64,000 nucleotides of DNA, from assembly GCA_963766165.1 (NCBI GenBank), contig CAVXZC010000012.1, positions 594,607 through 658,606 of the forward strand. The letters are read 5' to 3'. Positions 1 to 17,879 of this stretch are shown here, piece after piece. This DNA comes from an uncultured Solirubrobacteraceae bacterium. GTDB taxonomy: Bacteria > Actinomycetota > Thermoleophilia > Solirubrobacterales > Solirubrobacteraceae. The notes beneath the pieces are model-generated. The model did not search any database, was not told the origin of the DNA, and saw only the letters and a program-made list of their open reading frames with translations. Position numbers and translations under genes: made by a program. Every line of letters begins with the position of its first letter. The stretch's first letter is position 1.

Positions 1-1084
1 AGAGCTGCGCGAAGCGCTCCAGCGACATGCCGCGCCGGTTGACCGCCTCGTCGCGCACGGCGGGCAGCATCGCCTGGATGATGTTGATCCCCAGCGGCGC
101 CTTGAAGATGTCGCCGGCCGCGGCCTGCTTCTCCTCGCGGGTGTAGGGCGAGTGGTCGGAGCCGAGCGAGTCGATCGTCCCGGCCAGGACGTGCTCCCAC
201 AGCCGCTCGACGTCCGCGCGCGCCCGGATGGCCGGAGCGCAGCGCGCCCAGGCCCCCAGCCGCACCAGGTCGTCGTGGTCCAGCAGCAGGTACTGCGGGC
301 ACGTCTCGCAGGTCACCCGGGCGCCGGCCGCCTTGGCCTTCCGCACGATCTCGGCGCCCTCGGGCGTGGAGACGTGGGCCACGTGCAGCCGCGTCCCGGT
401 GTGGGTGGCGAAGCGCACCACGCGCGCGATCGCCTCCGCCTCGACCAGCGGGGGACGCGACTCGGCGTGGGCCAGCGGATCGGTCCGGCCGGCCGCGGCC
501 ATCCGGGCCAGCCCCGCCTGCAGCAGCGAGTCGTTCTCCGCGTGCACGATCAGCAGCGCGTCGAGCTCCGCCAGGTGCTCGAGCGCCTCCAGCAGCGTCG
601 CGTCGTCCAACCGCGGATAGCCGGGGCTGGACGCGCACATGTAGGCCTTGAACGCCCGCACGCCCTGTTCCTGCAGCGCGGCCAGCTCGTCGCGGGTCTG
701 GCCCGCCGCCGCCGCGTAGAGCGCGAAGTCGCAGATCGACGCCCGCTCGGCCAGCCCGCGCTTGATGGCCAGCGACTCCGGGTCTCGCACGAGCGGGTCG
801 GCCTGCGGCATCTCCCCGACCGTGGTGATGCCGCCGGCCACGGCCGAGGCGGTGCCCGGCCCGAAGCCCTCGCGCTGGGCCTTCGACGGCTCGCGCAGGT
901 GCGTGTGGATGTCCACGCCGCCGGGGAGGACGACCCTCCCCGTGGCGTCGAGGCGCTCGCCCGCGACCTCGCCGGCGTCTCCGACGAGCGCGGCGATGCG
1001 CCCATCCTCGATCACGATGTCGACGTCGCGCACGCCGTCCGCGAGGACGACGCGCGCGCCGGAGACGACGGCGAGCCCGGGCAT
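1..1084 (-). CDS. Cyclic amidohydrolase (allantoinase/dihydroorotase/hydantoinase family), 5' part in window; gene continues past window start
   Basis: Reverse-strand translation from ATG at 1082-1084: MPGLAVVSGARVVLADG...GGVDIHTHLREP...AFKAYM...VHAEND...SDHSPY (metal-binding HxH, carbamylated-Lys and His/Asp motifs of cyclic amidohydrolases). Not in ORF track because it runs off the window. Start lies 5 nt downstream of the binding-protein stop codon. Confidence 0.8.
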   Translation of the reverse strand, partial: MPGLAVVSGARVVLADGVRDVDIVIEDGRIAALVGDAGEVAGERLDATGRVVLPGGVDIHTHLREPSKAQREGFGPGTASAVAGGITTVGEMPQADPLVRDPESLAIKRGLAERASICDFALYAAAAGQTRDELAALQEQGVRAFKAYMCASSPGYPRLDDATLLEALEHLAELDALLIVHAENDSLLQAGLARMAAAGRTDPLAHAESRPPLVEAEAIARVVRFATHTGTRLHVAHVSTPEGAEIVRKAKAAGARVTCETCPQYLLLDHDDLVRLGAWARCAPAIRARADVERLWEHVLAGTIDSLGSDHSPYTREEKQAAAGDIFKAPLGINIIQAMLPAVRDEAVNRRGMSLERFAQL

Positions 1085-1089
1085 GGCCG

Positions 1090-2730
1090 CTAGCCCTTCC
1101 ACGCCACCCAGAGCGGGTAGTGCGCCGTGCTCTGGATGAAGAAGTCGTGGACGTCGTTGGCGAACGCGAACCGGTTGGTCGGGTTGATCAGCCAGAGGAT
1201 CGGCAGCTTGTCCATGATGATCCCCTGCCACTTGCCGAGCGCGGCGCCGCGCTCGGTGGTGTCCAGCATGCCCTGGGTCGAGTAGTAGAGCTTGTCCGCG
1301 CTCTTGTCGACCCAGCCGGTGTAGCCCGACTTCGCCCCGCCGGTGGAGACACAGCAGAACAACATGTTCGAGTTCGGCTCCAGGTTGTCGCTGGTGCCGT
1401 AGGTGTAGGACATCTGGTACTGCTGCTTCTGGAGCTTCTCGAACGCCGTCGTCTGGTCGACCGGCTCGATCTTGAGCGTGATGCCGATCTGCTTGAGCTC
1501 GCTCTGCATGATCGTGCCGATGGCCGCGGCCACCTGGTCGCCGGCCGGCGGGCTGAACGACACCGAGAAGCCCTTCGGGTACTTCGACTTGGCCATCAGC
1601 GACTTCGCCTTGGCCAGGTCGTACGCGTAGCCGTACTGGTCGGTGTGGAAGTAGACGCCCGGGTCGATCGGCGAGGTCGCCGCCTTGGCGTTGCCGAAGA
1701 ACACGCCCTTGACGATCGCCTGGCGATCGATCGCGTAGTTCATCGCCTTCACCACGTTCGGGTCGCGGAACTGCGGCACGTCGGTCATGTTCAGCGCGCT
1801 GGCGATCACGCCGAGCTGCGGCGTGGCCGCGGCGACGAGCTTCGGATCGGCGTCGATCGGACCGATCTGGTTGAAGGGCACGTCCATCACGGCGTCGAGC
1901 TGGCCGCCGCGCAGCTCGGTCATGCGCGTGTTGTCGTTCGGGATGTAGTCGAGCCGGACCTCTGACAGATACGGGTACTTGTGGCCGCAGGCGTCCTTGC
2001 CCCAGTAGTAGGGGTTGGCCTTGAGCAGCACGTGGTCGCCGGGCTTGAACTCCGCCACGGAGAACGCCCCGGAGCCCATCGGGTGCGTCTTCGGGTCCAT
2101 GCCGCCCTCGATGGCCTTCTTGGACATGATCGACGCGCCCCACAGCGTGAGGTCGTTCAGGAACGGCGCGTATGGCTTGCCGAGCGTGACCTTGATCGTG
2201 TGCGGGTCGACGACCTCCGTGCTCTTGATCGCCGACAGCGTCCAGTTGTTGACCGACTTGGGCGCCTCGACCCGGTCGAACGAGAACTTGACGTCGTCGG
2301 CCGTGACCGGCGTGCCGTCGGAGAACTTCGCGTCCGGCCGCAGGTGGAAGGTGTAGACGCGGCCGCCGTCGGAGACATCCCACGACTTCGCGAGGCCGGC
2401 GACGACCTTCTTCGCGTCGGGCGCCAGCTCGACCAGCTGGTCGTAGATGTTCATGTCGGCCCACAGCGAGCCGTTGTCCTGCGTGTTGTGGGCGTCGAAG
2501 CTGATGACGTCCTGGTCGACGCCGAAGTTGAGCGTGCCGCCGCGCTTGACGTGGCCGCAGTCGCCACCGCCGGCGGCGGCGGCCTTGGCGAGGGTCTTGC
2601 CCTGGCCGGAGCTGCCGGAGCCGCTGGAACTCGATCCGCCGCCGCAGCCGGCGACCAGCGCGGTGACGCTGGCGATCGCGGCCCAGCCGTACACGCGCGC
2701 GGGCCCGCGCGCCCTGCGAAGGAACACCAT
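1090..2730 (-). CDS. ABC transporter substrate-binding lipoprotein, family 5 (peptide/nickel/opine type)
   Basis: Track ORF 1090..2784. Likely start is the internal ATG (MVFLRR...) at 2730, preceded by GAGGAGG. Signal peptide with lipobox LVAGC; long SBP_bac_5-like body. Track GTG at 2784 would overlap the predicted -10 box. Confidence 0.85.
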   Translation of the reverse strand: MVFLRRARGPARVYGWAAIASVTALVAGCGGGSSSSGSGSSGQGKTLAKAAAAGGGDCGHVKRGGTLNFGVDQDVISFDAHNTQDNGSLWADMNIYDQLVELAPDAKKVVAGLAKSWDVSDGGRVYTFHLRPDAKFSDGTPVTADDVKFSFDRVEAPKSVNNWTLSAIKSTEVVDPHTIKVTLGKPYAPFLNDLTLWGASIMSKKAIEGGMDPKTHPMGSGAFSVAEFKPGDHVLLKANPYYWGKDACGHKYPYLSEVRLDYIPNDNTRMTELRGGQLDAVMDVPFNQIGPIDADPKLVAAATPQLGVIASALNMTDVPQFRDPNVVKAMNYAIDRQAIVKGVFFGNAKAATSPIDPGVYFHTDQYGYAYDLAKAKSLMAKSKYPKGFSVSFSPPAGDQVAAAIGTIMQSELKQIGITLKIEPVDQTTAFEKLQKQQYQMSYTYGTSDNLEPNSNMLFCCVSTGGAKSGYTGWVDKSADKLYYSTQGMLDTTERGAALGKWQGIIMDKLPILWLINPTNRFAFANDVHDFFIQSTAHYPLWVAWKG

Positions 2731-2778
2731 CGTTTTGAGCCCTCCTCGACTCCCGCGGCAGCCGGGTAGCCACCGCAT

Positions 2779-2811
2779 CTTCACTCTAGATGCAGAATTT
2801 CACTCTGTCAA
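2779..2811 (-). promoter_or_regulatory. Predicted sigma70-like promoter with embedded operator: TTGACA-17nt-TAGAGT on minus strand, two AGAGTGAA direct repeats spaced 20 bp; copy 1 of a 33-bp element repeated at 14631-14663
   Basis: Read directly: plus strand cttcactctagatgcagaatttcactctgtcaa; 27/33 identical to the 14631-14663 copy. Lies between the ATPase stop (2808) and the binding-protein start. Confidence 0.5.
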
Positions 2812-3782
2812 TCGTCATAGAGATGGCAGGCCACGGCCCGCCCGCTTGCCATCACGTGCCTGGCGGGGTACTCCCGGCGGCAGCGATCCATGGCGAACGG
2901 ACAGCGCGGATGGAAGTGGCAACCCGACGGCGGGTCCAGCGGGCTCGGCAGGTCGCCCTCGACACCGCGCTCGGAGCGGGGCTCCTCGGCGTCGATCAAA
3001 GGGACGGCGGCGAGCAGCGCCTGCGTGTAGGGGTGCAGCGGCTCCTCGAACAGCTCCGCCGTCGCCGCCTCCTCGACCACCCGCCCCAGGTACATGACCA
3101 CGATCCGCGTGCTCATGTGGCGGACGACGCCGAGGTCGTGCGAGATGAACAGGTAGGTCAGGTCGAGGTCGTCCTGCAGCGTGACCAACAGGTTGAGGAT
3201 CTGCGCCCGGATCGACACGTCGAGCGCCGACACGGCCTCGTCGGCCACGATGAACCGCGGGCCGACGGCCAGCGCGCGGGCGATCACGATGCGCTGGCGC
3301 TGCCCGCCGCTGAACTCGTGCGGGCGCCGGTCGCCCATCGCCGGCTCCAGGCCGACCCGCTCGAGCAGCTCGTCCACCCGCCCGCGGCGCTCGCCGGGCG
3401 GGCACAGCTCGTGCACGCGCAGCACCTCGTCGAGCGCGCCGCGCACGGTCTGGCGCGGGTTCAAGGACGAGTAGGGGTCCTGGAAGATGATCTGGATCTC
3501 GCGCCGCAGCCGGCGCACGGCGCGCTTGTCGGCCATGTCGACGGCCTGGCCGGCGAACCGCACCTCACCGCTGGTCGGCTTCTCCAGCGCGAGCAGGACC
3601 CGGCCCAGCGTGCTCTTGCCGCAGCCGCTCTCGCCGACCAGCCCGACCGTCGTCCCGCTCGGCATGGCGAACGACACGTCGTCGACCGCGCGCAGCACGT
3701 CGGCGCCGCGGCCGAACATCCCGCGCCCGACCCGGTAGTGCTTGCTCAGGCCACGGGCCTCGACGAGCGGCGTGTCAGACAA
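2808..3782 (-). CDS. ABC transporter ATP-binding protein (DppF/OppF-like)
   Basis: Walker [10 protein letters not shown], signature LSGGQRQR, oligopeptide-ABC C-terminal domain. Start chosen as TTG ([13 protein letters not shown]) overlapping the upstream gene stop; alternative ATG at 3824. Confidence 0.85.
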
Positions 3783-4803
3783 TCGGGGCCTCCACGGCCG
3801 CGTGGCGCCGGCAGCGCGTCGCATGCGCCGGCGCGACGTCGAGCAGCTCCGTTTCCCACTCCCGGCAGGCCTCCTCGGCGAGCGGGCAGCGCGGCTCGAA
3901 CACACACGTGCGGGGCGCCTCCCGGAGGCTGGGCGGCGAGCCGCCGATCGGCTTCAGGAACCGGCTCGGGTTCGCCGCCCGGGGCAGCGACTCGACCAGC
4001 CCCACGGTGTACGGGTGCCTGGGTGCGCGCAGCAGCTCGCGCACCGGCGCCGTCTCGACGAGCTGTCCGCCGTACATCACGGCCACGCGGTCGCACGTCT
4101 GGACGATCACCCCGAGGTCGTGGCTGACCAGCACGATGCTCATCCCGAGCTCGGCCCGCAGTCGCCTCAGCAGGCGCAGGATCTGGTCCTGGATCGTCAC
4201 GTCGAGCGCGGTGGTCGGCTCGTCGGCCAGCAGCAGCTTGGAGCCGCAGGCCAGGGCGATGGCGATCAGCACGCGCTGACGCATGCCGCCGCTGAACTCG
4301 TGCGGGTACTGGCGCAGCCGCCGCTCGGGCGAGCCGATGCCGACCTGCTGCAGCAGCTCGACCGCCTTCGCCCGGCGCTGCCCGCGGTCGAGGTCGGTGT
4401 GCCGGCGCAGCGTCTCCGTCAGCTGCTCGCCGACCTTCAGGACCGGGTTCAGGTAGCTCATCGGGTCCTGGAAGATCATCGAGATGCCGGCGCCGCGGAC
4501 CGCCCGCAGCTCGCGCTCGCGCATCGTCACCAGGTCGTCGCCGTGGAAGCGCGCCTCGCCCGTCACGTGCGCCGAGCCGGGCAGCAGCCCGATCATGGCC
4601 CGCAGCGTCGCGCTCTTGCCGCAGCCGCTCTCTCCCACCAGGCCGAAGATCTCGCCGGAGCGGACGTCGAAGCTGACGCCGTTGACCGCGTGCACCGTGC
4701 GGGTGCCGTCGTAGCGGACCGCCAGGTCGCGCACCGCCAGCACCGTCTCCGTCGGCCGCGCCGCCGTATCGGCGGCCAGGACCCGGTCGTCCGCCGCGCC
4801 CAT
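3775..4803 (-). CDS. ABC transporter ATP-binding protein (DppD/OppD-like)
   Basis: C-terminal 343 aa of track ORF 3775..5619 ([10 protein letters not shown]...[10 protein letters not shown]...FSGGMRQRV...). ATG at 4801-4803 overlaps the permease stop (ATGA). The 614-aa track ORF is a frame-extension artefact. Confidence 0.85.
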
Positions 4804-5687
4804 CACCGCTCCCCCCGCAGCATGTCGGCCAGGTTGTCGCCGATCAGGCTCAGCCCGACCCCGAACAGCGCGATCATCACGCCCGGTACGGCGGCGAGCC
4901 ACCAGTTGGTGGCGATGTACTCCTGGGCGTCGGCGATCATCTTGCCCCACTCCGCCGTGGGGTCGGCCACGCCGAGCCCCAGGAAGCCGAGCGCCGCGCC
5001 GATGCTCACGTTGTTGACCGCGTCGACCATGGCGAACACGAGCGCCGGCGCGGCCGCGTTGGGCAGCACGTGGCGGAACATGATCCGCCAGTTGCCGTAG
5101 CCGAGCGCGCGGGCCGCGGTCGTGTAGTCGCGCTGCTTGAGCACGAGCACCTCGCCGCGCACGATGCGCGCGTAGGCCACCCAGGTGACCGCCCACATGG
5201 CGATCAGCATGTTCAGCAGCCCGCCGCCGAGGATCGCGATGATCGCCAGCACGAGCACGATCAGCGGGAAGGCGAAGACGATGTCGACGAGCCGCATCAT
5301 CACCGAGTCGACGCGGCGGCCCGAGTAGCCCGCCACAAGGCCGTAGAGCGAGCCGAACGTGCAGGTCACCGTGGTCGCGGCGAACGCGATCAGCAGGTCG
5401 ACGCGGCCGGCGTAGAGGACGCGGCTGAGCAGGTCGCGCCCGTACTGGTCGGTGCCGAGCAGGTGCCCGGGCGAGAATGGCGGCTCCAGCGCGTGCAGCA
5501 GGTCCTGCTGGTTGGGGTCGTAGGGCGCGAGCAGCGGCGCGAACACGGCGGAGAGCGCGATCAGGACGACGAGCACGATCCCCACGATCAGCGGCACGCG
5601 CCCGCGCAGCCGCACCCACGACAGCGGCGTGCGCGGCGTGGCGACGGTGACGGGCGCGGCGACGGGCTCGTTGAGGAGGTCGCTCAT
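4803..5687 (-). CDS. ABC transporter permease (DppC-like)
   Basis: 294 aa, multi-TM, BPD-transporter-like hydrophobic segments. Confidence 0.9.
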   Translation of the reverse strand: MSDLLNEPVAAPVTVATPRTPLSWVRLRGRVPLIVGIVLVVLIALSAVFAPLLAPYDPNQQDLLHALEPPFSPGHLLGTDQYGRDLLSRVLYAGRVDLLIAFAATTVTCTFGSLYGLVAGYSGRRVDSVMMRLVDIVFAFPLIVLVLAIIAILGGGLLNMLIAMWAVTWVAYARIVRGEVLVLKQRDYTTAARALGYGNWRIMFRHVLPNAAAPALVFAMVDAVNNVSIGAALGFLGLGVADPTAEWGKMIADAQEYIATNWWLAAVPGVMIALFGVGLSLIGDNLADMLRGER

Positions 5688-5688
5688 C

Positions 5689-6630
5689 TCAGTCGAACGA
5701 GACGCGCGGGTCCATGACGGCGTAGGCGACGTCGGTCATCAGGTTGATCGCCACGACACAGAAGCCGAAGACGAGGATGATCCCCTGCACGACCGAGAGG
5801 TCGCGGGTGTTGATCGAGGAGGCCAGCAGCTGGCCGAGGCCCGGCAGCGCGAACACGTTCTCGATGATCACGGTGCTGCCGATCAGGTAGGCGAGGTTGA
5901 CGCCGATCACCGTCACGCCCGCGATCAGGGCGTTCCGCAGCACGTGCCGGTTGAGCACGCGCAGCGTCCCGAGGCCCTTGGCCTTCGCGGTGTCCAGGTA
6001 GTCCGCCTGCAGCACCCCGAGGATGCTGTTGCGCAGCGTGCGGGTGAGGATCGCCCCGAAGCCGAGCGCGATCGTCAGCGCCGGGAGGAACAGGTGGTAG
6101 AGGTGGCCGGTGACGCCTGTCCCGTAACCCGAGACCGGGAAGATCGGGAACTTGAGGCCGAACAGCAGGATGAGGATCAGCCCCACCCAGAACGGCGGCA
6201 TGGCGAAGATGACCAGGAACGAGACGCGCGTGGTCTGGTCGGCCACGCCGTTGCGCCGCAGCGCGCTCAGCGTGGCCAGCGGGACGCTGATGACGATCGC
6301 CAGCACGGTCGAGTAGACGGCCAGCCACAGCGTCACCGGCAGCCGCTCGCTGATCAGCGAGGTGACCGACTGGTGGTAGTAGATCGACTGCCCGAGGTTC
6401 AGCCGGAACAGGTTCTCCATGAACAGGCGGTACTGCTCGGCGACCGACTTGTCGAGCCCGAGGTTGTGGCGCAGCACCGCGGCACGCGCCGGCGTCCAAT
6501 GGGCGCCGAGCATGACCGAGGTGGGGTCGCCCGGGATCAGCCGCAGGATGAAGAACGCGATGATCGTCACGCCGACCACCACGGGCACGGCCTGGAGCAG
6601 GCGCCCGCGCAGGAAGCGGAAGCGGCCCAT
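5689..6630 (-). CDS. ABC transporter permease (DppB-like)
   Basis: 313 aa, multi-TM, typical DppB/OppB N-terminus MGRFRFLRGRLLQAVPVVVGVTIIAF. Confidence 0.9.
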   Translation of the reverse strand: MGRFRFLRGRLLQAVPVVVGVTIIAFFILRLIPGDPTSVMLGAHWTPARAAVLRHNLGLDKSVAEQYRLFMENLFRLNLGQSIYYHQSVTSLISERLPVTLWLAVYSTVLAIVISVPLATLSALRRNGVADQTTRVSFLVIFAMPPFWVGLILILLFGLKFPIFPVSGYGTGVTGHLYHLFLPALTIALGFGAILTRTLRNSILGVLQADYLDTAKAKGLGTLRVLNRHVLRNALIAGVTVIGVNLAYLIGSTVIIENVFALPGLGQLLASSINTRDLSVVQGIILVFGFCVVAINLMTDVAYAVMDPRVSFD

Positions 6631-7362
6631 CTACGCCAGGCCCTCCTGCGCCAGGCGCCAGGCGTCGTAGCGGCCGCCGGAGATCGCCGGGTCGCGCGAC
6701 GCGGCCAGCGCCACGAAGCCCGGCGCCAGCTCGGCCGGGTCGACCCACTCCGCGCGCGCCGCGGCGTCATACGTGGTCTCGGACATCGGCGTGTGCATGG
6801 CCTTGCCGGGCGTGACCGAGACGACGCGGACGCCGAACGGCTCGAGCTCCAGCGCGAGCGTCCGCGTCAGGCCCTCGAGCCCGAACTTCGACGGGCAGTA
6901 TGCGGACTCGCCGACGAAGCCGCGGATCCCCGACTCGGAGGTGACGTTGACGATCAGCCCGTTCCCGCGCGCCTTCATGGCGGGGATGAACGCGCGCGAG
7001 TACAGGAACGGCCCGCGGAGGTTCGTCGCCACGATCTTGTCCCACTCGGCCGGCGTGGTGTCCTCGATCGGCTTGACCGCGATGATCCCGGCGTTATTGA
7101 CCAGGATGTCGAGCCGGCCGTGGCGGTCCAGCACGGACGCGGCCACTTCACCGGCCCGCTCCGCGTCGCCCACGTCGGCGGCCACCGCGTCCAGCGACAG
7201 GGCCTCCGCGACCGCGACGGCACGGACCTCCTCCAGCTCGGAGGCGTGCAGCGACAGCGCGACCACGCGCGCTCCCGCCCGGGCCAGGCCGAGCGCGACG
7301 GCCCGGCCGAGCCCGGCCCCGGCGCCCGTGACGAGCGCCACCCGGTCCTGCAGCGCGCCCAT
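6631..7362 (-). CDS. SDR family oxidoreductase
   Basis: TGAGAGLG Rossmann motif, catalytic YCPSK, 243 aa. Confidence 0.9.
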   Translation of the reverse strand: MGALQDRVALVTGAGAGLGRAVALGLARAGARVVALSLHASELEEVRAVAVAEALSLDAVAADVGDAERAGEVAASVLDRHGRLDILVNNAGIIAVKPIEDTTPAEWDKIVATNLRGPFLYSRAFIPAMKARGNGLIVNVTSESGIRGFVGESAYCPSKFGLEGLTRTLALELEPFGVRVVSVTPGKAMHTPMSETTYDAAARAEWVDPAELAPGFVALAASRDPAISGGRYDAWRLAQEGLA

Positions 7363-7369
7363 GGCGCCG

Positions 7370-8263
7370 TTACGCCGCCGCCTCTTGCCCCGCGCGCAGC
7401 CCCAGCAGGTCGGCGAGGTTGCGCTCGGACCGCAGCTCGGGCTCGATCCGGCCGGCCGCCGCGGTCATCAGCGGCGTGACGCCGGGACCGTGGCCGCCGC
7501 GCGGGCTGTCGCCGTGGGCCACCACGCCGATCGTCAGCGCGCCGGCCAGGTAGCCCGGGCCCCAGCGCGTGTCGAAGTCGCGCAGCGCGACGATGTCGCC
7601 GAGGCGCAGGGCGTCGAGACCGGCCGCGCGCAACGCCGCCTCGTCCTCGGTCTGGATCTGGATCGCGCCGCTCTCGGCCTGCAGCCCCGCGCCCGCGCCC
7701 GCGAGCAGCGGCGGCACCTCGGCGACCACCGGGACCGTCAGCACGCCCGGCTCGCCGGCCCGCACCTCGAGCGCGTCCAGCAGCGCCGGCGAGCAGCTCT
7801 TGAGCTGCACGTCGGGGTAGTCGCTGAGCGCGAGGCTGCGGCCCAGCGCGCGGATCAGGATCTTGTCCTGGATCGCCAGGCGCTCGAGCACGTCGGGGGC
7901 GAAGTGGACGATCACGTGGTCGGCGAAGCGGCCGCTCTTGCCGATCACGGTCCCGCGCGCGCCCTGGGCGCTCCCACTGGCCACGATCGCCTCGTTGCCG
8001 ACGCAGGCGATGACATTCAGCGCGTGGTTGGGCCCGTCGGCCGGGCTCTTCACGCTCACGCCCGGCTGGACCATGTCCGCCGTCCAGCCGAACGCGCTGT
8101 CGCCGACGCGGACGTTGTAGACGATCCCGCCGGGCGGGACGAGCAGGCGCGGGCGCCCGTCGGCGCCGATCACGTACGGGCTCGCCGGCAGCGTCGGCAG
8201 CTCGGGCGAGGAGACCTGGCCCTGGACGGCGACGCCGACGATCTGGCTGCGGTTGTCGAACAC
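7370..8263 (-). CDS. Conserved hypothetical protein, paralog A of a tandem pair (size and pattern reminiscent of DUF4438-type proteins; unverified)
   Basis: 297 aa, GTG start with GAGGGGGA ribosome-binding site. Shares GDSAFGW, CVGNEA and HGDS..GHGPGV blocks with the next gene. Confidence 0.7.
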   Translation of the reverse strand: MFDNRSQIVGVAVQGQVSSPELPTLPASPYVIGADGRPRLLVPPGGIVYNVRVGDSAFGWTADMVQPGVSVKSPADGPNHALNVIACVGNEAIVASGSAQGARGTVIGKSGRFADHVIVHFAPDVLERLAIQDKILIRALGRSLALSDYPDVQLKSCSPALLDALEVRAGEPGVLTVPVVAEVPPLLAGAGAGLQAESGAIQIQTEDEAALRAAGLDALRLGDIVALRDFDTRWGPGYLAGALTIGVVAHGDSPRGGHGPGVTPLMTAAAGRIEPELRSERNLADLLGLRAGQEAAA

Positions 8264-8279
8264 GACGTTCCCCCTCGAA

Positions 8280-9200
8280 TCAGCCGGTCACGGCGTAGGA
8301 GCTGACATGGTCGCCCGGCCGGCGGGCCTCGATCTCTTCCCGCGTGCGCAGGCCCAGCCGGACGGCGATGTTGGCCTCCGGGTCGCGCACCGTGGTGATG
8401 ACATGCTCCTCGCGGCAGGTGAGCAGATCCAGGACCCCCGGTCCATGTCCGGTCCAGGCCGAGTCGCCGTGGATGATGAGCCCGATGGTCATCGCGCCCT
8501 GGCGGTAGCCGCGGCCCCACATGTGGTTCGTGTCCGGGACGGCCACGATGTCGCCCAGGCGCAGCCGGTCCAGGCCGAGCTCGGCGATGTGCGCCCGGTC
8601 GCCGGTCATGAAGTCCTGGTCGACATAGTCGGCCATCAGCTCGGCGCCGGAGCCCATCAGATACGCGGGGATCTCGTTCACCACCGGCACGAGCAGCGCG
8701 CCGTCGGGCGCGGTGTCGAGCCGCAGCGCCTCCAAGAGCCGCGGGCTGACCTTGTGGGTGAGCACCCCCGGGTGGTCGAGCAGCTCGAGCCCCGTGCCGA
8801 CGGCCCGGATCTGGATCGTGTCGCCGATGGCCAGCAGCTCGATGTCCTCGGGCGGGAAGTCGACGAGCAGGTGCGCGTGCTCGCCGGTCAGCGTCCCGCG
8901 CGCGCCGGCGCAGGCGCCCGAGGTGACCACGGCCTCGTTGCCCATGCAGGCCAGGTAGTGGAGCGCGTGCTCGGGGCCGTCGAGTGGGTTGCGCACCGAG
9001 ACGCCGGGCTCCAGATGGTCGACCTCCCACCCGAAGGCGGGATCGCCGCAGCGGTGGGTGAAGCAGATCCCGGCCATCCCGATGCCCACCGTGGCCCTGC
9101 CCTCGGACGTGGCCTGGTACGGCAACCGGGTCAGCCCCGGCGGCCACACCTCCCCGGAGACGGACACCTCGACCAGCGAGTCGGCGTTCGTGCGCAGCAT
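8280..9200 (-). CDS. Conserved hypothetical protein, paralog B of the tandem pair
   Basis: Real start MLRTNADSLVEV at 9198-9200 (ATGA overlap with upstream stop). Shares GDPAFGW, CMGNEA and HGDSAWTGHGPGV blocks with paralog A. Track ORF 8280..9767 is over-extended. Confidence 0.7.
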   Translation of the reverse strand: MLRTNADSLVEVSVSGEVWPPGLTRLPYQATSEGRATVGIGMAGICFTHRCGDPAFGWEVDHLEPGVSVRNPLDGPEHALHYLACMGNEAVVTSGACAGARGTLTGEHAHLLVDFPPEDIELLAIGDTIQIRAVGTGLELLDHPGVLTHKVSPRLLEALRLDTAPDGALLVPVVNEIPAYLMGSGAELMADYVDQDFMTGDRAHIAELGLDRLRLGDIVAVPDTNHMWGRGYRQGAMTIGLIIHGDSAWTGHGPGVLDLLTCREEHVITTVRDPEANIAVRLGLRTREEIEARRPGDHVSSYAVTG

Positions 9201-10186
9201 CAGCCCTCCTTCAAGACGTGCAGCGGCGCCTCGCCGCGGGCGAAGCGGACGACGTTGGCCAGCACGTCGCTCATCTGGTTCACCCGCGCGCCGCCGGTCC
9301 CGCCGCCGATGTGCGGCGTGACGATGACGTTGGCCAGTGCGAGCAGGGGATTGTCGTACGGAACAGGCTCCTCCACGAACACGTCGAGCCCGGCGCCGCG
9401 CAGGCGACCGGACGAGAGCGCGTCCACCAGCGCCGGCTCGTCGACGAGCGGACCGCGCGCGATGTTGACGAGGTACGCCTCGGGGCGCATCAGCGCGAGC
9501 TCGCGGGCGCCGATGATCTTGTCGCTCTCCGGCGAGTGCGGCAGCGACAGCAGGACGAAGTCCGACGCGGCGAGCAGGTCGTCGAGCGGCCTGTACGCGA
9601 CGCCAAGCCGGCGCTCGATCGCCTCCGGCAGCCGCGTCCGCTTCGTGTAGAGCACGTCCATCCCGAGCGCCCGCGCCCGCACGGAGACCTCCGTGCCGAT
9701 CTCGCCGTAGCCGACGATGCCCAGCGTGTGGCCGTGCACCTCGAGCAGGTGCGGCAGCTTCATCCACTGGAAGGCGAACGTGCGCTGGCTGGTCGGCGCG
9801 GGCGTCAGGCCCAGGTCGCGGTAGCCGCCCTGCACCGTGGACGCGTGGGCCACGATCAGCTGCTTGGACAGCGCGAGGATGAGCGTCGTGGCCAGTTCGG
9901 CCACGGCGATGCAGCCGCGCAGCGGCATCGTCGCCACCGTCACGCCGGCCGCGCCTGCGGCGCCCAGGTCGATGCCGTCCTCGCGCGCGCCGTACTTCTG
10001 CAGGAAGCGCGCGCCCGGGGCGGTCGCCAGCACCGCCGCGTCGACCGCGGCCGACTTGGTCACCAGCGCGTCGGCGCCCGCGCCGTCCAGGTTGACGACC
10101 CGGAACCCCTCGGGGACGAGCTCGTTGCCCAGCTCGAGGTCGGCGTCGGGCTGCTCGTCCACCCAGGCGATGACGAACTCGCTCAT
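9200..10186 (-). CDS. D-isomer-specific 2-hydroxyacid dehydrogenase family (NAD-binding)
   Basis: 328 aa; GIVGYGEIG dinucleotide-binding motif and conserved R/E/H triad context. Confidence 0.9.
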   Translation of the reverse strand: MSEFVIAWVDEQPDADLELGNELVPEGFRVVNLDGAGADALVTKSAAVDAAVLATAPGARFLQKYGAREDGIDLGAAGAAGVTVATMPLRGCIAVAELATTLILALSKQLIVAHASTVQGGYRDLGLTPAPTSQRTFAFQWMKLPHLLEVHGHTLGIVGYGEIGTEVSVRARALGMDVLYTKRTRLPEAIERRLGVAYRPLDDLLAASDFVLLSLPHSPESDKIIGARELALMRPEAYLVNIARGPLVDEPALVDALSSGRLRGAGLDVFVEEPVPYDNPLLALANVIVTPHIGGGTGGARVNQMSDVLANVVRFARGEAPLHVLKEG

Positions 10187-11358
10187 GCCGCGAGCACCGC
10201 CTCGATGCGCTCCATGGCCACGATCAGCTCGGGCTCGGGGACGAGCCAGGCCAGCCGCATGTAGTCCGCCCAGGCCTCGCCGAAGCCGGTGCCCGGGAAG
10301 ATCAGCACGTGCGCCTCCTCCAGCAGCTTGAGCGACAGCTCGGGCGCCGGGATGCCGGTCGAGGCGGCGTTGAGGAACACGTAGAAGCCGCCGCGCGGCT
10401 CCCCGTAGCTGATGCCGAGCCGGTCGAGCGAGTCGAGGACGATCTTGCGCCGGCGCGTGTAGATCTGCCGGTACTCCTCGACGACGTCCATCGGGCCGGT
10501 GAGCGCGGCCACGCCGGCCGCCTGCGAGACCACCGGCGCGCAGGTGCTGACGATCGCCTTCCGGCGCCGCGCCTCGGCCATCACCGGGTGCGGGCCGCCC
10601 AGGTAGCCGAGCCGCCAGCCCGTCATGCAGAACGTCTTCGAGAAGCCGTTCACGGTGACGGTGCGCTCGGACATGCCGGGGAGCGATCCGATGCTCAGGT
10701 GCTCGTGCGGGTCATAGACGAGCTTCTCGTAGATCTCGTCGGAGATGACGTAGAGGTCGTGGCGCTGCGCCACGCCGGCCAGCGCGCGCAGGTTCTCGGG
10801 CGTGACCGTGCCCGCCGTGGGGTTGTTGGGCGAGATCAGCAGCAGCGCCTTCGTGCGCGGCGTGATCCGCTTCTCCACCTCGTCCGGATCGAGGTCGAAC
10901 CCGTCGGCCTCGCGCGTGGGCACCGAGACCATCGTCGCCCCGGCCATCTTGATCGCGATGTCATAGGACGTGTAGCGCGGGTCGGGCACGAGGATCTCGT
11001 CCCCCGGCTCCAGCAGCGCCTGCACGGCCAGGAAGAGGCCCTCCTGGCCGCCGGTGGTGACCACCACGCCGTCCGGACCGCCGACGTCCACGCCGTTCTC
11101 GCGCCGCAGCTTGTCCGCTACCGCGGCCCGCAGCTCCGGCGTGCCGGCGGGGTCGCTGACCCGGTCGGCGTCGCCCCGGTCGATCGCCGCCTTGGCCGCC
11201 TCCACGATGTGGGCCGGCGTCGGCAGGTCCGGGTCCCCGCGGCCGAGCGCGATCACGTCGTCGACGCGCGCGGCCAGGTCCATCAGGCCATAGCGGATAC
11301 GGGTGCCGCCGTCCGCGAGCCGATCGCCCCCGGGGCGCGTGGTGGTCGGCTCGGTCAT
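10183..11358 (-). CDS. PLP-dependent aminotransferase, class I/II
   Basis: Start MTEPTTT at 11356-11358 (ATGA overlap). SKTFCMTGWRLGY lysine motif region. 829-aa track ORF is an extension artefact. Confidence 0.9.
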   Translation of the reverse strand: MTEPTTTRPGGDRLADGGTRIRYGLMDLAARVDDVIALGRGDPDLPTPAHIVEAAKAAIDRGDADRVSDPAGTPELRAAVADKLRRENGVDVGGPDGVVVTTGGQEGLFLAVQALLEPGDEILVPDPRYTSYDIAIKMAGATMVSVPTREADGFDLDPDEVEKRITPRTKALLLISPNNPTAGTVTPENLRALAGVAQRHDLYVISDEIYEKLVYDPHEHLSIGSLPGMSERTVTVNGFSKTFCMTGWRLGYLGGPHPVMAEARRRKAIVSTCAPVVSQAAGVAALTGPMDVVEEYRQIYTRRRKIVLDSLDRLGISYGEPRGGFYVFLNAASTGIPAPELSLKLLEEAHVLIFPGTGFGEAWADYMRLAWLVPEPELIVAMERIEAVLAA

Positions 11359-12410
11359 GCGGTCTCCTCGTGATCGTGGGCGGTGAGCGCGGCGGCCAGC
11401 CGCCGGCCGGCGAGCCGCAGCCGCTCGGGCGACTCGGTGAGCGACAGCCGCAGCCAGCCGGACAGCCCGACGGTGTCGCCGGGCGCCGCGCGCACGTCCG
11501 CCGCTGCGGCCGCGTCGTCGCCGCCCTGGACGAGCACGTGCCAGCCCGCCGCCGGCGCGACGCACCGGGCGCCGCCCGCGTCGAGCGCGGCCACGAGCGC
11601 GGCGCGCCGCGCGCGCACCTCGGCCTGCGCCTCGCCCACGCGGTCCTGCGGGCCGCGCACGGCGGCCAGCGCGGCGTACTGGGAGACCGCGGGGCTGCAG
11701 ATGCTCAACGCCTGCTTGAGCGCGATCATCGGGCCGAGCAGCGCCTGCGGCCCGGCCAGGTAGGCCACCCGCCAGGCCTCCAGGCCCCAGATCGCCGAGA
11801 AGCCGTTGATGGTGACGGTGCGCTCGGCCATCCCGGGCAGCGCGGCGATGCTGCGATGGACGGCGCCGTCGTGCAGCAGCGGCTCGAGGCTCTCCACCGC
11901 GACCACGGTCAGGTCGTGCTCGCCGGCCACGCTCGCGAGTGCGGCCAGCTCCGCGTCGCCGGGCGCGATCAGGCCCGGCGCTCGCAGCACGATCACCTTG
12001 GTCCGGTCGGTCACCGCCTGGGCCACGGCGTCGGCGTCGAGGGCGAGCCCGCGCTCGGGGTCGGACGCCAGCGCGCGCGGCGTGGCCCGGGCCAGGCTCA
12101 CGATGTCGGCGTCTCCGGCGCGGGCGGGCGCGGCCAGGATCGCCTCGTCGCCGGGCTCGAGCAGCACGTGCAGCGCGACCCACAGCGCCTCCTGCTCGCC
12201 GCAGGTGATGAGCACCTCGCGCTCGGGGTGCACCGCGATCCCGTTCTCGGCGGCCAGCTTCTCCGCCACGGCGCGGCGCAGGGGATTGATCCCCGGGCGC
12301 GTCGTGTAGTGCGTCTCGCCCGCGTCGAGCGCGTCCTTGGCCCCTTGGCGGACGTGCGCGGGCGTCGGGAGGCCGAGGTGGTCGGCGGACAGGTCGATCA
12401 CATCGGTCAT
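11355..12410 (-). CDS. PLP-dependent aminotransferase, class I/II (divergent paralog)
   Basis: Start MTDVIDLSADHLGLPTPAH at 12408-12410 (ATGA overlap). Same fold pattern as the previous gene. The canonical Lys region is altered, so function is uncertain. Confidence 0.75.
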   Translation of the reverse strand: MTDVIDLSADHLGLPTPAHVRQGAKDALDAGETHYTTRPGINPLRRAVAEKLAAENGIAVHPEREVLITCGEQEALWVALHVLLEPGDEAILAAPARAGDADIVSLARATPRALASDPERGLALDADAVAQAVTDRTKVIVLRAPGLIAPGDAELAALASVAGEHDLTVVAVESLEPLLHDGAVHRSIAALPGMAERTVTINGFSAIWGLEAWRVAYLAGPQALLGPMIALKQALSICSPAVSQYAALAAVRGPQDRVGEAQAEVRARRAALVAALDAGGARCVAPAAGWHVLVQGGDDAAAAADVRAAPGDTVGLSGWLRLSLTESPERLRLAGRRLAAALTAHDHEETA

Positions 12411-13534
12411 CGGGTCGCCTCCACGGCGCGTCGCAGCTCGAGCGCGACCCGGCGGACGTCGTCGGCGGCGAGCTCTGGGTAGATGGGCAGGCACAGCAGC
12501 TCTTCCGCGAGCCGGTCGGTGTTCGGGAACGACCCGGCCGGGCGGTCGCGGTAGACGGGCTGCCGGTGCAGGGGCGGGACGTAGAGGAGGGAGGTCTCGA
12601 CTCCGCGGCCGGCGAGGTCGGCTCGCACCGCGTCGCGCCGGGGGACGCGGACGACGTAGTTGCGGTAGGCATGCGTCACGCCGGCCGGGACGCTCGGCGT
12701 GATGACCGGCGAGCCGGCCAGCAGCTCGTCGTAGAGCGCGGCCACCGCCCGGCGGCGGCGCGCCGCGTCCGGCAGGTGGCGGAGCTTCACGCGCAGGATC
12801 GCGGCCTGCAGCAGGTCGAGGTGGCTGTGGTAGCCCTCCGCCTCCAGGCGCTGGCGCCCGTCCGGGCCGGCCATCGCCTCGCGGAACGGCTCGCCGTACC
12901 CGGCCAGCAGCCGGGCGCGATGGGCCAGGTCCGCGTCGTCGGTGGTGATCAGGCCGCCGTCGCCGTAGGCGCCGAGCACCTTGGCCGGCGCGAAGCTGAA
13001 GGAGGCGATGCGGCCGAGCGAGCCGGCCGGGCGGCCCCCCACCGTGGCGCCGAAGGCCAGCGCCGCGTCCTCCACGAGCGCGACGCCGCGTGGCTCGGCC
13101 AGCGCGCGCAGCTCGCCCACCGGCGCGGGGAGGCCATACAGGTGGACGGCCACGATCGCCTTGGTGCGCGGCGTGATCGCCGCGGCCACCCGCTCCGGGT
13201 CGAGGTTGTGGGTGGCGAGATCGACGTCGGCCCACACGAAGGTCGCGCCGGTGTGGCTGATCGCCGCGCAGGTGGAGATGTCGGTGTTCGGCGGCGCGAT
13301 CACCTCGTCGCCCGGCCCGACGCCGAGCGCGCGCAGGGCGAGGAACAGCGCGGCGAGCCCGCTGCCCACCGCGACGGCGTGGGCGGTCCCGCACGCCGCG
13401 GCCAGCTCGTCCTCGAGGCGCCACAGGTCCTCGCCCCGCTCGTACTCGCCACCGGCGAGGATCGCCGCGATGGCCGGGTCGAGCTCGGCGCGCAGCGCGG
13501 CGTAGCCGGCGCCGAGGTCGCTCGTGGGGATCAA
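12407..13534 (-). CDS. DegT/DnrJ/EryC1/StrS-family PLP aminotransferase
   Basis: ELIPTSDLGAGYAAL N-terminus. TTG start with GGAGG 4 nt upstream and TTGA overlap with the Ldh_2 gene stop. About 375 aa. Confidence 0.85.
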   Translation of the reverse strand: MIPTSDLGAGYAALRAELDPAIAAILAGGEYERGEDLWRLEDELAAACGTAHAVAVGSGLAALFLALRALGVGPGDEVIAPPNTDISTCAAISHTGATFVWADVDLATHNLDPERVAAAITPRTKAIVAVHLYGLPAPVGELRALAEPRGVALVEDAALAFGATVGGRPAGSLGRIASFSFAPAKVLGAYGDGGLITTDDADLAHRARLLAGYGEPFREAMAGPDGRQRLEAEGYHSHLDLLQAAILRVKLRHLPDAARRRRAVAALYDELLAGSPVITPSVPAGVTHAYRNYVVRVPRRDAVRADLAGRGVETSLLYVPPLHRQPVYRDRPAGSFPNTDRLAEELLCLPIYPELAADDVRRVALELRRAVEATR

Positions 13535-14595
13535 TTCGCCTCCAGCGGCGCGACGTCCAGCGCCTCGGCTGCGGCTGCCAGCTCGTCGAGGCGCTCGGCG
13601 TCGATCGGTACGCCCTCGCGTCGCCGCTGCTGCGCGCGCTCCCACTCGATCTGGCCGGGCAGCTTGATCTCCTGCGCGCCCGGCGCGAGCGGGGCGGAGA
13701 CGATCTGCTCGATCAGCGCGTCCATCCGCGCCCGGAAGTCGGCGACCGGCGTGAAGCGGCCGATGTCGATGGCGATCAGGAGGTGGCCGACGTCCTGGTG
13801 GTCGGGCCCGAAGCAGTCCAGCCCGAACGCCGATCCCGTCAGCACGCCCGTCAGCGCGTCGACGACCACCGCGAGCGCGTAGCCCTTGGGCCCGCCGAGC
13901 GGGAACAGCGCGCCGAGCATCGCCGCGGACGGGTCAGTGGTCCGCTCGCCGCCCTCCGTATAGGCCCAGTCGTCGGGAATCGGCAGCCCGAGCCGCTCGT
14001 GCCAGCGGATCATGCCCTTGCCCGACGTGCTGTTGGCCATGTCGAGCAGCACGGGCCATTCGCGGCCGCTGGGCACGGCGACGGCCCAGGGGTTCGTCCC
14101 CACCACCGCCGTCGCGGCGCCCCAGGGCGCGATCTCCGGGCCGGCGTTGGTGAACGACAGGCCGATGCACCCGCGCTCGAGCGCGCGCTCGGCGTAGTAC
14201 GCGGCGACGCCGAAGTGCGTGCTGTCGCGCACGCCGACGGCGCCGATGCCGGACTCGGCCGCCAGGTCCAGCGCGAGCTCCATCGCCCGCGTCGCGGCCA
14301 CGTGGCCGGAGGCGCGGTGCGCGTCGAGGAGCGCCGTGGCCGGCGCCCGGCTCACCGTCTCCAGCCGCGCCGCCGGGTCGATCACCCCGGCTTGGATGCG
14401 GGCGTGGTAGCTGCCGATCCGCGAGACGCCCTGGCCCTGGCCGGGCAGCGAGCGCAGCGAGCCGGCCAGCAGCACGTCGGCGAACGTCTCGGCGTCGGGC
14501 GCCCGGAAGCCCATGCGCGCGGCGCAGCCGCGGCAGAAGCGCTCGAGCTCCGGGTACGGGACGAGGACCGTCGGTACGGTGGGCGCAGAGGACAT
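13531..14595 (-). CDS. Ldh_2 family (malate/L-sulfolactate/ureidoglycolate/piperideine-2-carboxylate) dehydrogenase or reductase
   Basis: 354 aa; GTNPWA, STSGKGM and HxG motifs typical of PF02615. First gene of the operon. Confidence 0.85.
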   Translation of the reverse strand: MSSAPTVPTVLVPYPELERFCRGCAARMGFRAPDAETFADVLLAGSLRSLPGQGQGVSRIGSYHARIQAGVIDPAARLETVSRAPATALLDAHRASGHVAATRAMELALDLAAESGIGAVGVRDSTHFGVAAYYAERALERGCIGLSFTNAGPEIAPWGAATAVVGTNPWAVAVPSGREWPVLLDMANSTSGKGMIRWHERLGLPIPDDWAYTEGGERTTDPSAAMLGALFPLGGPKGYALAVVVDALTGVLTGSAFGLDCFGPDHQDVGHLLIAIDIGRFTPVADFRARMDALIEQIVSAPLAPGAQEIKLPGQIEWERAQQRRREGVPIDAERLDELAAAAEALDVAPLEAN

Positions 14596-14630
14596 GGCGA
14601 GATCGCCCGGAGGCGATCGCCGGGACGCAG

Positions 14631-14663
14631 TTTCAATCTAAGCGCAGATTTTCACTCTGTCAA
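14631..14663 (-). promoter_or_regulatory. Copy 2 of the 33-bp promoter/operator element: TTGACA-17nt-TAGATT with AGAGTGAA and AGATTGAA direct repeats
   Basis: Plus strand tttcaatctaagcgcagattttcactctgtcaa. Lies between the XRE gene stop (14671) and the Ldh_2 start (14595). The leader also has the palindrome GGCGATCGCC (14612-14621). Confidence 0.5.
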
Positions 14664-14670
14664 GCCGCGC

Positions 14671-15255
14671 TCAGAACGTGGGCGGGGTGCAGACGAAGAT
14701 CATCTCCACCGTCTCCGCGCCCGCGTTGCCGAACGAGTGCACGAGCGCGCTGTCGAACGAGATCGAGTCGCCGGCCTCCAGCAGGTAGACCATCCCATTG
14801 ACCGTCACCGACAGCGCGCCGGAGACCACGGTCATGAACTCCTCGCCGGCGTGCGCGAACGGCGTCTCCTCGGTGGTGACGCCCGGCGGGATGATGTAGC
14901 GGACCACCTGCAGCGAGCGATCGAGGTCGGGGGTCATCATCAGCGCCGAGACGTCCTCGTCGTCGATCACGTGCGGGCTCAGCTCGCGCTGCTCGCCGCG
15001 GCGCACCACGGGCGACGCCGTGCGCTCCACGTGCAGCAGCCGCGCCACCGGGACGTCGAGCGCGTGGGCGATCTTGATCAGCGTGAAGAAGGCCGGATTG
15101 CCCTTGCCGCGCTCGAGCTGGCTGAGCCCGCCGATGCTCAGACCGCTCGTCCGGGAGATGTCCTCGAGCGTCAGCCCCTGCTCCTGACGCAGCCGCCGCA
15201 GCTGCTCCCCGAAGGCGCTCTGCAGGATGACCGGGTCAGGATGTCGATCCGACAT
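14671..15255 (-). CDS. XRE-family HTH transcriptional regulator with C-terminal cupin domain
   Basis: LRRLRQEQGLTLEDISRTSGLSIGGLSQLERGKGNP (HTH_XRE) followed by a cupin_2-like beta-barrel. Confidence 0.9.
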   Translation of the reverse strand: MSDRHPDPVILQSAFGEQLRRLRQEQGLTLEDISRTSGLSIGGLSQLERGKGNPAFFTLIKIAHALDVPVARLLHVERTASPVVRRGEQRELSPHVIDDEDVSALMMTPDLDRSLQVVRYIIPPGVTTEETPFAHAGEEFMTVVSGALSVTVNGMVYLLEAGDSISFDSALVHSFGNAGAETVEMIFVCTPPTF

Positions 15256-15323
15256 GGACCACGAGTCTAAGCCTGAGCCGAGCGCCTTGACGACGGTCTG
15301 AGCGGGCTCTACGGTGACCCGGG

Positions 15324-15707
15324 ATGAGCGTGGTCAGACACACGCCCGAGTCCCTCGCCCGCTGGGAGGAGGCCGACTCGCAGGACCCGGCGCGCGCCAA
15401 GCTGCGCGAGCTGACGGTGGCCTACGTGAGGGCTCAGGGCGGGCTGATGCTGGACGTCTGGCGCCTGTACATGGGGCCGTGGTTCGGCGAGCCGGAGATG
15501 ATGCTGCTCTCGGAGGTCGCCGAGCGGCTCGGCATCTCGGAGTGGCACGCGGAGAACATCGTCCGGGCCACGGACGCGGCGGTCGTCCCGCAGTGGCGGC
15601 GCACCGCCGAGTTCCGCGACTCCGAGCTCGGCGAGGCGGCCCAGCTGTCCTGGCCCGCCGCGTTCCAGCACGTCCTGCGCTTCCCCGACGACGGCAGCGA
15701 GGGTTAG
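15324..15707 (+). CDS. Small hypothetical protein (127 aa) with a possible HTH segment (SEVAERLGISEWHAENIVRA), divergent from the XRE gene
   Basis: Near-100% GC3 codon bias. A TTGACG-17-TACGGT promoter-like sequence lies upstream at about 15288-15316. Confidence 0.6.
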   Translation: MSVVRHTPESLARWEEADSQDPARAKLRELTVAYVRAQGGLMLDVWRLYMGPWFGEPEMMLLSEVAERLGISEWHAENIVRATDAAVVPQWRRTAEFRDSELGEAAQLSWPAAFQHVLRFPDDGSEG

Positions 15708-17830: not shown

Positions 17831-17879
17831 CTCGGCTCTCCTCTCCCGCCCCGGGTCGCCTACCCGGTGAGCGCCTTCG

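Follow-up and report, generated by a model that had tools for sequence, protein, structure and literature searches.

Paired predicted promoter elements with TGAA half-sites at the locus of an XRE-cupin regulator gene in an uncultured Solirubrobacteraceae bacterium

Transcription factors that join an XRE-type helix-turn-helix domain to a cupin domain have been described in Pseudomonas as local inhibitors of neighboring metabolic genes (Trouillon et al. 2021, PMC7901475). These factors mostly bind core promoters at palindromic motifs, and are thought to occlude RNA polymerase until pathway metabolites release them (PMC7901475). One of them, PsdR, has two sites around its own gene, by which it controls a dipeptidase and a Dpp binding protein, and monomer-like contacts were reported for a PsdR half-site mutant (PMC7901475). 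XRE-cupin regulators have also been reported across Actinobacteria, and PuuR, the putrescine-responsive repressor of the puu genes in E. coli, is released by its ligand (PMC7901475). Here, we describe two copies of a 33-bp promoter/operator element in a window of 64,000 nucleotides (the whole stretch of DNA analyzed) from an uncultured Solirubrobacteraceae bacterium. One copy stands between the gene for an XRE-cupin regulator and a metabolic gene cluster, and the other lies inside that cluster. The best explanation of their sequences, to which we assign a probability of about 0.78, is that both promoters are occluded by the adjacent XRE-cupin protein, acting as a ligand-released repressor.

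The regulator resembles P. aeruginosa PsdR, PauR, ErfA, PA0535, and further factors of this type in its combination of HTH_3 and Cupin_2 domains and in having its gene beside its presumed targets. As for the P. aeruginosa inhibitors, the putative sites lie in core promoters of small-molecule uptake and catabolic genes, where occlusion is proposed here. The presence of two promoters, one of them for a family-5 binding protein, is reminiscent of the two-site control by PsdR. In contrast to the Pseudomonas factors, the locus belongs to the phylum Actinomycetota (class Thermoleophilia, as judged by the nearest relatives), the target pathway is a different one, and the operator is built on TGAA. 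Moreover, whereas the Pseudomonas motifs are palindromic, the window sites keep one half of a palindrome together with a direct half-site over the -10 hexamer.

Nemoto and coworkers reportedly found in 2012 that PuuR does not recognize a simple palindrome but an asymmetric sequence of 15 bp, AAAATATAATGAACA, present in several copies. The E. coli puuA-puuD intergenic region contains AAAATATAATGACCA, AAAAAATATTGAACA, CTAGATTGAAAA, and CTAGATTGAAAAAATATTGAACA, which resemble the part of the window elements formed by the -10 hexamer and the TGAA half-site. The target genes in the window are unrelated to the gamma-glutamyl putrescine pathway. In addition, CTAGATTGAAA in the puuA-puuD spacer of E. 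coli K-12 (L098, 1910-2120) is identical to the -10/half-site part of one orthologous element (L081, see below). This coincidence may be due to chance or to a half-site preference common to distant XRE-cupin homologues.

The window elements share with the loci of homologues in Streptomyces, Pseudonocardia, Nakamurella, and other Actinomycetota a TTGACA that is immediately followed by GA[AG]TGAA in a sigma70-type spacer by the regulator gene. The sites in those lineages differ in that they are clean palindromes (AGTGAA-N4-TTCACT), lack GAA past the -10 hexamer, and adjoin another operon. They lie upstream of the regulator gene, where autoregulation is likely. No description of the operators of actinobacterial XRE-cupin homologues turned up in the literature searched.

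Anatomy of the two elements

Both elements lie on the minus strand, which codes for every gene from 2 to 15255 in an unbroken array. In each, two octamer half-sites in the same orientation, termed H1 and H3, are combined with a -35 and a -10 hexamer. The features concerned are as follows, all on the minus strand.

2779..2811: copy 1, internal promoter/operator 5' of the binding-protein gene, TTGACAGAGTGAAATTCTGCATCTAGAGTGAAG
2806..2811: -35 hexamer TTGACA of copy 1, enclosing the TGA stop (2810-2808) of the preceding ATPase gene
2799..2806: half-site H1 of copy 1, AGAGTGAA
2783..2788: -10 hexamer TAGAGT of copy 1
2780..2787: half-site H3 of copy 1, AGAGTGAA
14631..14663: copy 2, promoter/operator at the operon head, TTGACAGAGTGAAAATCTGCGCTTAGATTGAAA
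14658..14663: -35 hexamer TTGACA of copy 2
14651..14658: half-site H1 of copy 2, AGAGTGAA, overlapping the last base of the -35 hexamer
14635..14640: -10 hexamer TAGATT of copy 2
14632..14639: half-site H3 of copy 2, AGATTGAA, overlapping the -10 hexamer and extending 3 nt beyond it
14671..15255: XRE-cupin regulator gene, 194 aa, presumed repressor, with HTH_3 and Cupin_2 domains (Pfam)

On the plus strand, the elements read CTTCACTCTAGATGCAGAATTTCACTCTGTCAA (2779-2811) and TTTCAATCTAAGCGCAGATTTTCACTCTGTCAA (14631-14663) and are identical at 27 of 33 positions; these sequences, coordinates, and identity are exactly those of the original prediction, which was made from the sequence alone. On the minus strand, copy 1 reads TTGACA-17 nt-TAGAGT and copy 2 TTGACA-17 nt-TAGATT, and each matches 10 of the 12 consensus positions of the two hexamers. 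The plus-strand octamers are TTCACTCT at 2780 and 2799 in copy 1, and TTCAATCT at 14632 and TTCACTCT at 14651 in copy 2. In both copies they are 19 bp apart from start to start, with a gap of 11 nt, and not 20 bp or two helical turns apart as had been claimed. Copy 2 begins 7 nt past the stop codon of the regulator gene, as predicted, and ends 35 nt (rather than 36 nt) before the ATG at 14595. From the end of the -10 hexamer to the ATG, the distance is 52 nt in copy 1 (ATG at 2730) and 39 nt in copy 2. Transcription would start near 2776-2778 and 14628-14630 (minus strand). The elements had also been described as flanking a 15-gene operon. There are twelve genes between them; copy 2 heads the operon and copy 1 is internal to it.

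The gaps that hold the elements are too short for a terminator (7 nt between the regulator stop and the -35 hexamer of copy 2; the ATPase stop inside the -35 hexamer of copy 1), and none was predicted in either gap. A search of the whole window against Rfam gave no match, and therefore neither promoter is followed by a known riboswitch or leader RNA.

The elements are AT-rich in a window of 74.5% G+C, and they agree with each other far more than chance would allow. The 20-mer TTGACAGAGTGAAANTCTGC, allowing up to three mismatches, occurs at these two places only, and no match was found in any of 100 shuffled sequences. A scan of positions 1-20000 for the sigma70-like promoter consensus returned two matches (0.3 expected), namely copies 1 and 2, which bears out their description as near-consensus sigma70 promoters. 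Furthermore, a weight matrix built exclusively from orthologous sites in other genomes scored the two copies at 39.2 and 38.0 bits over the 64 kb, and the next best site at 4.3 bits. Judged by their hexamers, both elements are near-consensus and predicted to be strong housekeeping (sigma70/HrdB-type) promoters. At the center of the two copies, 5 of 9 positions match (counted by eye); this is no better than in orthologous pairs and therefore gives no support for co-adaptation within the genome.

A mobile element, such as a miniature inverted-repeat transposable element, was ruled out as the source of the two copies: their similarity is confined to about 38 nt, without terminal repeats or target duplications. 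In a generic repeat search of positions 1-20000, the AT-rich pair was absent from the families shown, and the output was dominated by GC-rich chance matches between coding sequences.

Conservation in orthologous loci and association with the regulator

Contigs of relatives were gathered through homologues of the regulator and, separately, of the binding protein, and the closest of these relatives belong to uncultured Thermoleophilia/Solirubrobacterales. Among the close relatives, all gaps between the regulator and Ldh_2 genes contain the element, as do regions 5' of binding-protein orthologues, so that the predicted conservation upstream of orthologous operons was found. The sites are listed by locus.

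L099, regulator/Ldh_2 gap: TTGACAGAGTGAAAATCTGCGCTTAGATTGAAA
L102, regulator/Ldh_2 gap: TTGACAGAGTGAAAATCTGCACCTAGATTGAAA
L100, regulator/Ldh_2 gap: TTGACAGAGTGAAATTGTGCGCCTAGATTGAAA
L085, regulator/Ldh_2 gap: TTGACAGAGTGAAATTGTGCGCTTAGATTGAAA
L081, regulator/Ldh_2 gap: TTGACAGAGTGAAATTTTCACTCTAGATTGAAA
L084, regulator/Ldh_2 gap: TTGACAGAGTGAGATTCTTCTTCTAGGTTGAAA
L092, 5' of binding-protein gene: TTGACAGAGTGAAAATCTAGAACTAAGATGAAA
L094, 5' of binding-protein gene: TTGACAGAGTGAAAAACTAACACTAGAGTGAAA
L093, 5' of binding-protein gene: TTGACAGAATAGAATTCTAACACTATAGTGAAA
L095, 5' of binding-protein gene: TTGACATGATGAAAATCTAACAGTAGGCTGCCC
L097, 5' of binding-protein gene: TTGACATGATGAAAAGATAGCACTACGCTGAAC

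The binding-protein gene is preceded by a divergent dehydrogenase gene rather than an ATPase gene in L093, L095, and L097, and by another divergent gene in L094. As the sites persist in these differing gene contexts, copy 1 goes back to a binding-protein promoter of independent origin, and copy 2 was not recently duplicated to produce it. The suggestion that copy 1 serves the binding-protein unit as a separate promoter inside the operon is therefore supported. L093 has a third copy, TTGACGACATGAAGAATTCTAAGTAGAGTGAAG, located past a terminator-like hairpin and 5' of a DHDPS-like gene. A metagenome search with the pattern TTGACAGAGTGAR-N10-TAG-NN-TGAA found seven loci, among which only L085 and L088 are true orthologues; the other five were rejected as promoter-like sequences without relation to the element, in contigs that were low in GC or unrelated for other reasons.

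Eleven sites from regulator or binding-protein orthologues (59-93% identity) were aligned. Columns 1-5 (TTGAC), T10, T18, T24, A25, T29, and G30 are invariant; A6, G11, A12, A13, A14, A31, and A32 deviate in at most one of the 11 sites (A6 in one); and columns 19-23 and 28 hold almost no information. T24, A25, and T29 are key bases of the -10 hexamer, and their conservation is expected. T10-A14, T18, and G30-A32 lie outside the hexamers, where promoters need no set sequence. Fourteen orthologous sites from uncultured Thermoleophilia/Solirubrobacterales have three parts in common, namely the -35 hexamer with GAGTGAAA, a single T in the spacer, and the -10 hexamer with GAA, whereas their center and flanks are free to change. 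In the four closest relatives, all substitutions within the element are at positions 15, 17, or 21-23. GAA (columns 30-32) is invariant in the close relatives, among which the 7-8 nt before the -35 hexamer and the leader vary, with insertions and deletions.

The relationship between direct and inverted half-sites is best seen in L081, whose regulator/Ldh_2 site belongs to a 76%-identical orthologue. There, the spacer is a perfect 9+1+9 palindrome, AGAGTGAAA-T-TTTCACTCT, followed by TAGATTGAAA, which gives a forward H1, a reverse H2, and a forward H3; the same three-part layout occurs in L005, L007, and L008. In the window copies and most close relatives, H2 has shrunk to the invariant T18, and H1 and H3 are intact. 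TGAA blocks are exactly 19 bp apart in 8 of the 11 close sites, and L097 has three such blocks in series (19 + 19 bp). A TTCA 3' of H3 that would complete a second palindrome is absent from all close sites. The spacing is fixed because each half-site is locked to a promoter hexamer across the 17-nt spacer, and it therefore provides little information on the helix face. The direct repeat noted in the original prediction is real and conserved, although it gives only part of the picture, as across the family the promoter spacer holds an inverted-repeat operator, TGAA-N3-5-TTCA. The direct repeat is a clade-specific derivative of that palindromic operator.

The regulator has the domains PF01381 HTH_3 (residues 19-71, E 7.6e-14) and PF07883 Cupin_2 (residues 120-189, E 7.7e-16), and its closest full-length solved structure is PDB 1y9q (aligned over residues 9-178). 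Over its full length, the protein is homologous to E. coli PuuR (30% identity, E 5e-23). Its best NCBIfam match, the PuuR equivalog NF007408, scores 75.8 bits; as this is far under the cut-off of 211 bits, the protein is a homologue and not an orthologue of PuuR. In the recognition-helix region, S-x-G-x-LSQ-x-ERG-x-GNP, residues S40, G42, S45, Q46, E48, R49, G50, N53, and P54 are invariant across the family, and this predicted recognition helix fits a half-site that is common to the family.

Such a common half-site is apparent among 80 genome loci with regulator homologues of 34-63% identity. The motif TTGAC-N-G-R-R-TGA-M adjoins the regulator gene in many lineages, and the half-site near these genes is usually palindromic (TGAA-N4-TTCA, with a family range of N3-5) and placed between TTGACA and TAnnnT, as exemplified by TTGACAGAGTGAAGATTTTCACTATGTT in Allokutzneria. 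The palindrome [AG]TGA[AC]-N3-7-[TG]TCA[CT] occurs at 0.61/kb near the regulator gene (within 350 bp upstream or 250 bp downstream) and at 0.048/kb in the rest of the same loci, a 13-fold enrichment. Homologues of the Streptomyces type adjoin an unrelated operon for an MFS transporter, FAD oxidoreductase, family III CoA-transferase, and enoyl-CoA hydratase. The half-site is kept there, and therefore the motif tracks the regulator and not the pathway. Regulator and element are adjacent in every orthologous locus seen. In the window, copy 2 adjoins the regulator gene, and the conserved positions that a promoter would not require fall between the predicted -35 and -10 hexamers and just past the latter.

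Proposed repressor occlusion and alternative explanations

We infer that the XRE-cupin protein (14671-15255) binds the elements, that it represses rather than activates, and that a ligand releases it. H1 (GAGTGAAA) occupies the start of the spacer beside the -35 hexamer, and H3 (TGAA) shares the final base of the -10 hexamer and extends toward the predicted transcription start. A repressor bound to both through its helix-turn-helix domains would exclude RNA polymerase from both promoters, and would probably also stop read-through from the regulator gene. Binding of a pathway small molecule to the cupin domain would then make the protein leave the DNA. Copy 2 would drive the 12-gene operon of enzymes and an ABC importer, and copy 1 would provide additional expression, under the same control, of the cyclic amidohydrolase and the substrate-binding protein.

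Several observations weigh against this explanation. The inverted half-site is degenerate in the window copies (TGCAT and TGCGC, compared with TTCAC), and therefore a classical symmetric dimer would find one good half-site per palindrome. The remaining half-sites are in direct orientation and 19 bp apart, a layout that does not obviously suit a dimeric XRE protein. Unlike in many homologues, the region upstream of the regulator gene (15256-15323) has no matching operator; the best match there is a weak TTGACG-17 nt-TACGGT on the opposite strand (4.3 bits). When copy 1 is compared with L092, the leader is conserved as well as the element. Finally, the orthologous sites were partly spotted by a pattern that requires TTGAC and TGA, and the conservation of those columns is somewhat inflated, although all sites fall in the intergenic gap predicted from gene order.

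With regard to the number of subunits per site, candidates for the use of H1 and H3 are two dimers with one good half-site each, a tetramer, or monomer-like contacts. It is conceivable, although we regard it as rather unlikely, that the repressor of this Thermoleophilia clade no longer reads a palindrome but direct-orientation TGAA half-sites at a fixed 19-bp phase. In that case, the repeat units [C/T]AGAGTGAA would begin within the hexamers, and the -35 and -10 hexamers would themselves be parts of the operator. Such an arrangement would imply an asymmetric cover of the core promoter by several subunits, nearer to the reported behavior of PuuR than to that of classical XRE dimers. It would also mean that a single regulator family has passed, in a traceable way, from inverted to direct half-sites.

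Occlusion by the XRE-cupin protein has to be weighed against other explanations of the same half-sites. The promoters may be regulated by a different transcription factor, encoded elsewhere, that binds the TGAA half-sites. This would agree with the direct-repeat layout, which is unusual for XRE dimers and commoner in, e.g., OmpR-type response regulators, and with the lack of an operator 5' of the regulator's own gene. However, regulator homologues beside unrelated operons and in distant lineages of actinobacteria have the half-site as well, at 13-fold local enrichment, the recognition helix is conserved together with the half-site, and regulator and element adjoin each other in all orthologous loci seen, which makes a foreign factor improbable. 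Still less credit is due to the idea that one strong constitutive promoter is used twice, with the shared spacer resulting from common descent or gene conversion. The hexamers are indeed near-consensus, AT-rich promoters are conspicuous at 74.5% G+C, and the 19-bp distance between TGAA blocks is automatic given a 17-nt spacer. Yet positions 7-14, 18, and 30-32 are kept across the aligned orthologues while the spacer center varies, and copy 1 comes from a separate binding-protein promoter rather than a recent duplication of copy 2. Moreover, the promoters of the Streptomyces homologues have H1 without GAA past the -10 hexamer, and GAA is therefore not a general promoter feature.

Alternatively, the XRE-cupin protein may bind the elements and activate transcription from the spacer in the manner of MerR, given that its position between the -35 and -10 hexamers would be that of spacer-binding activators. 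We find this the hardest of the alternatives to credit, since a spacer of the optimal 17 nt and near-consensus hexamers need no remodeling, and every characterized XRE-cupin factor is an inhibitor (PMC7901475).

Gene cluster, neighboring genes, and biological meaning

Genes were called by frame analysis of third-codon-position G+C together with Pfam and NCBIfam, and starts marked ~ are approximate. The genes of the cluster are as follows, in the order of transcription and all on the minus strand.

2808..14595: the twelve genes downstream of copy 2, from the Ldh_2 dehydrogenase to the second ATPase
13531-14595: Ldh_2 dehydrogenase
12407-~13540: DegT-type aminotransferase
11355-~12410 and 10183-~11373: two class I/II aminotransferases
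9200-10186: D-2-hydroxyacid dehydrogenase
8280-~9200 and 7370-8263: two DUF4438 proteins (PF14505 + PF20999)
6631-7362: short-chain dehydrogenase
5689-6630 and 4803-5687: two Dpp/Opp-type permeases
3775-~4800 and 2808-~3905: two ATPases
1090..2730: family-5 substrate-binding lipoprotein, 546 aa, lipobox LVAGC, first gene past copy 1 (NCBIfam; homologues carry PF00496)
2..~1084: allantoinase/hydantoinase-like cyclic amidohydrolase, truncated by the window edge, its start overlapping the end of the binding-protein gene

Downstream of copy 1 there are thus at least two further genes. The amidohydrolase matches the NCBIfam allantoinase model with 312 bits, which is under the cut-off. The same gene order is found in L081, L095, L096, and L097, and tandem DUF4438 paralogues are present mid-cluster in these four loci as well. 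No NCBIfam model matches either DUF4438 protein of the window, and nothing on DUF4438 turned up in the literature search. The clusters of relatives additionally hold genes for a DHDPS-like lyase, a glyoxalase, and an M20 peptidase.

Divergent from the regulator gene is a small gene of 127 aa (15324-15707, plus strand), whose coding signal is strong (third-position G+C of 0.98) and which has its own promoter-like TTGACG-17 nt-TACGGT at 15287. It matches nothing in Pfam or NCBIfam. At the equivalent position, L081, L084, L099, and L100 have a gene of 125-131 aa. Just upstream of the regulator region are genes for a GH15 glucodextranase-like protein (15704-~17700, minus strand) and an M19 membrane dipeptidase (17880-18830, minus strand), and the weight matrix scan of the 64 kb found no matching operator at either. 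In L095, an M19 dipeptidase gene is likewise near the cluster.

The regulator gene has a putative promoter of its own (15256-15300, minus strand; 9960-10000 in L081), with a conserved -10 hexamer TAGACT only about 9 nt from the ATG, which suggests that the predicted regulator mRNA is leaderless or nearly so. The bases preceding this -10 hexamer resemble those preceding the operon -10 hexamer, as seen in GCTTAGACT and GCTTAGATT of the window and CACTCTAGACT and CACTCTAGATT of L081. In three Streptomyces genomes (L013 at 5734 and 5916, L015, and L022), the promoter/operator upstream of the homologous regulator is tandemly duplicated at a distance of 182 bp, and the duplicated stretch takes in the 15 nt that precede the -35 hexamer. 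An ATG follows within about 10 nt of each -10 hexamer there, and a small upstream open reading frame and the regulator may both be leaderless. Furthermore, four Thermoleophilia loci with regulators of 61-63% identity (L001-L004, ~6640-6720) have a long, strongly conserved region past the operon promoter, …GGGGA.TCCGGTCGG…GAAGCGTGGTC.CGATCCCGACAGTCACCGTTCAGCTCGAC, which may represent either a conserved leader or the actual beginning of the first gene.

Taken together, the locus would represent an ordinary local metabolic switch, with the modest twist that the inverted half-site has been lost in favor of a direct one over the -10 hexamer. The two elements and the regulator had been put forward as an undescribed operator/regulator pair. 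This applies to the exact operator sequence, which is undescribed in the literature searched, and not to the mechanism, as occlusion by XRE-cupin factors is already established (PMC7901475). The findings provide a candidate set of regulator, operator, and promoter for Thermoleophilia/Solirubrobacterales, a poorly studied and mostly uncultured actinobacterial class. In addition, the TGAA-in-spacer half-site could help to predict which regulons belong to a widespread subfamily of actinobacterial XRE-cupin regulators. Finally, the elements would mark a conserved cluster (two DUF4438 proteins, three aminotransferases, two dehydrogenases, a Dpp-type importer, and a cyclic amidohydrolase) as one inducible unit, and this co-regulation could help the search for its substrate.

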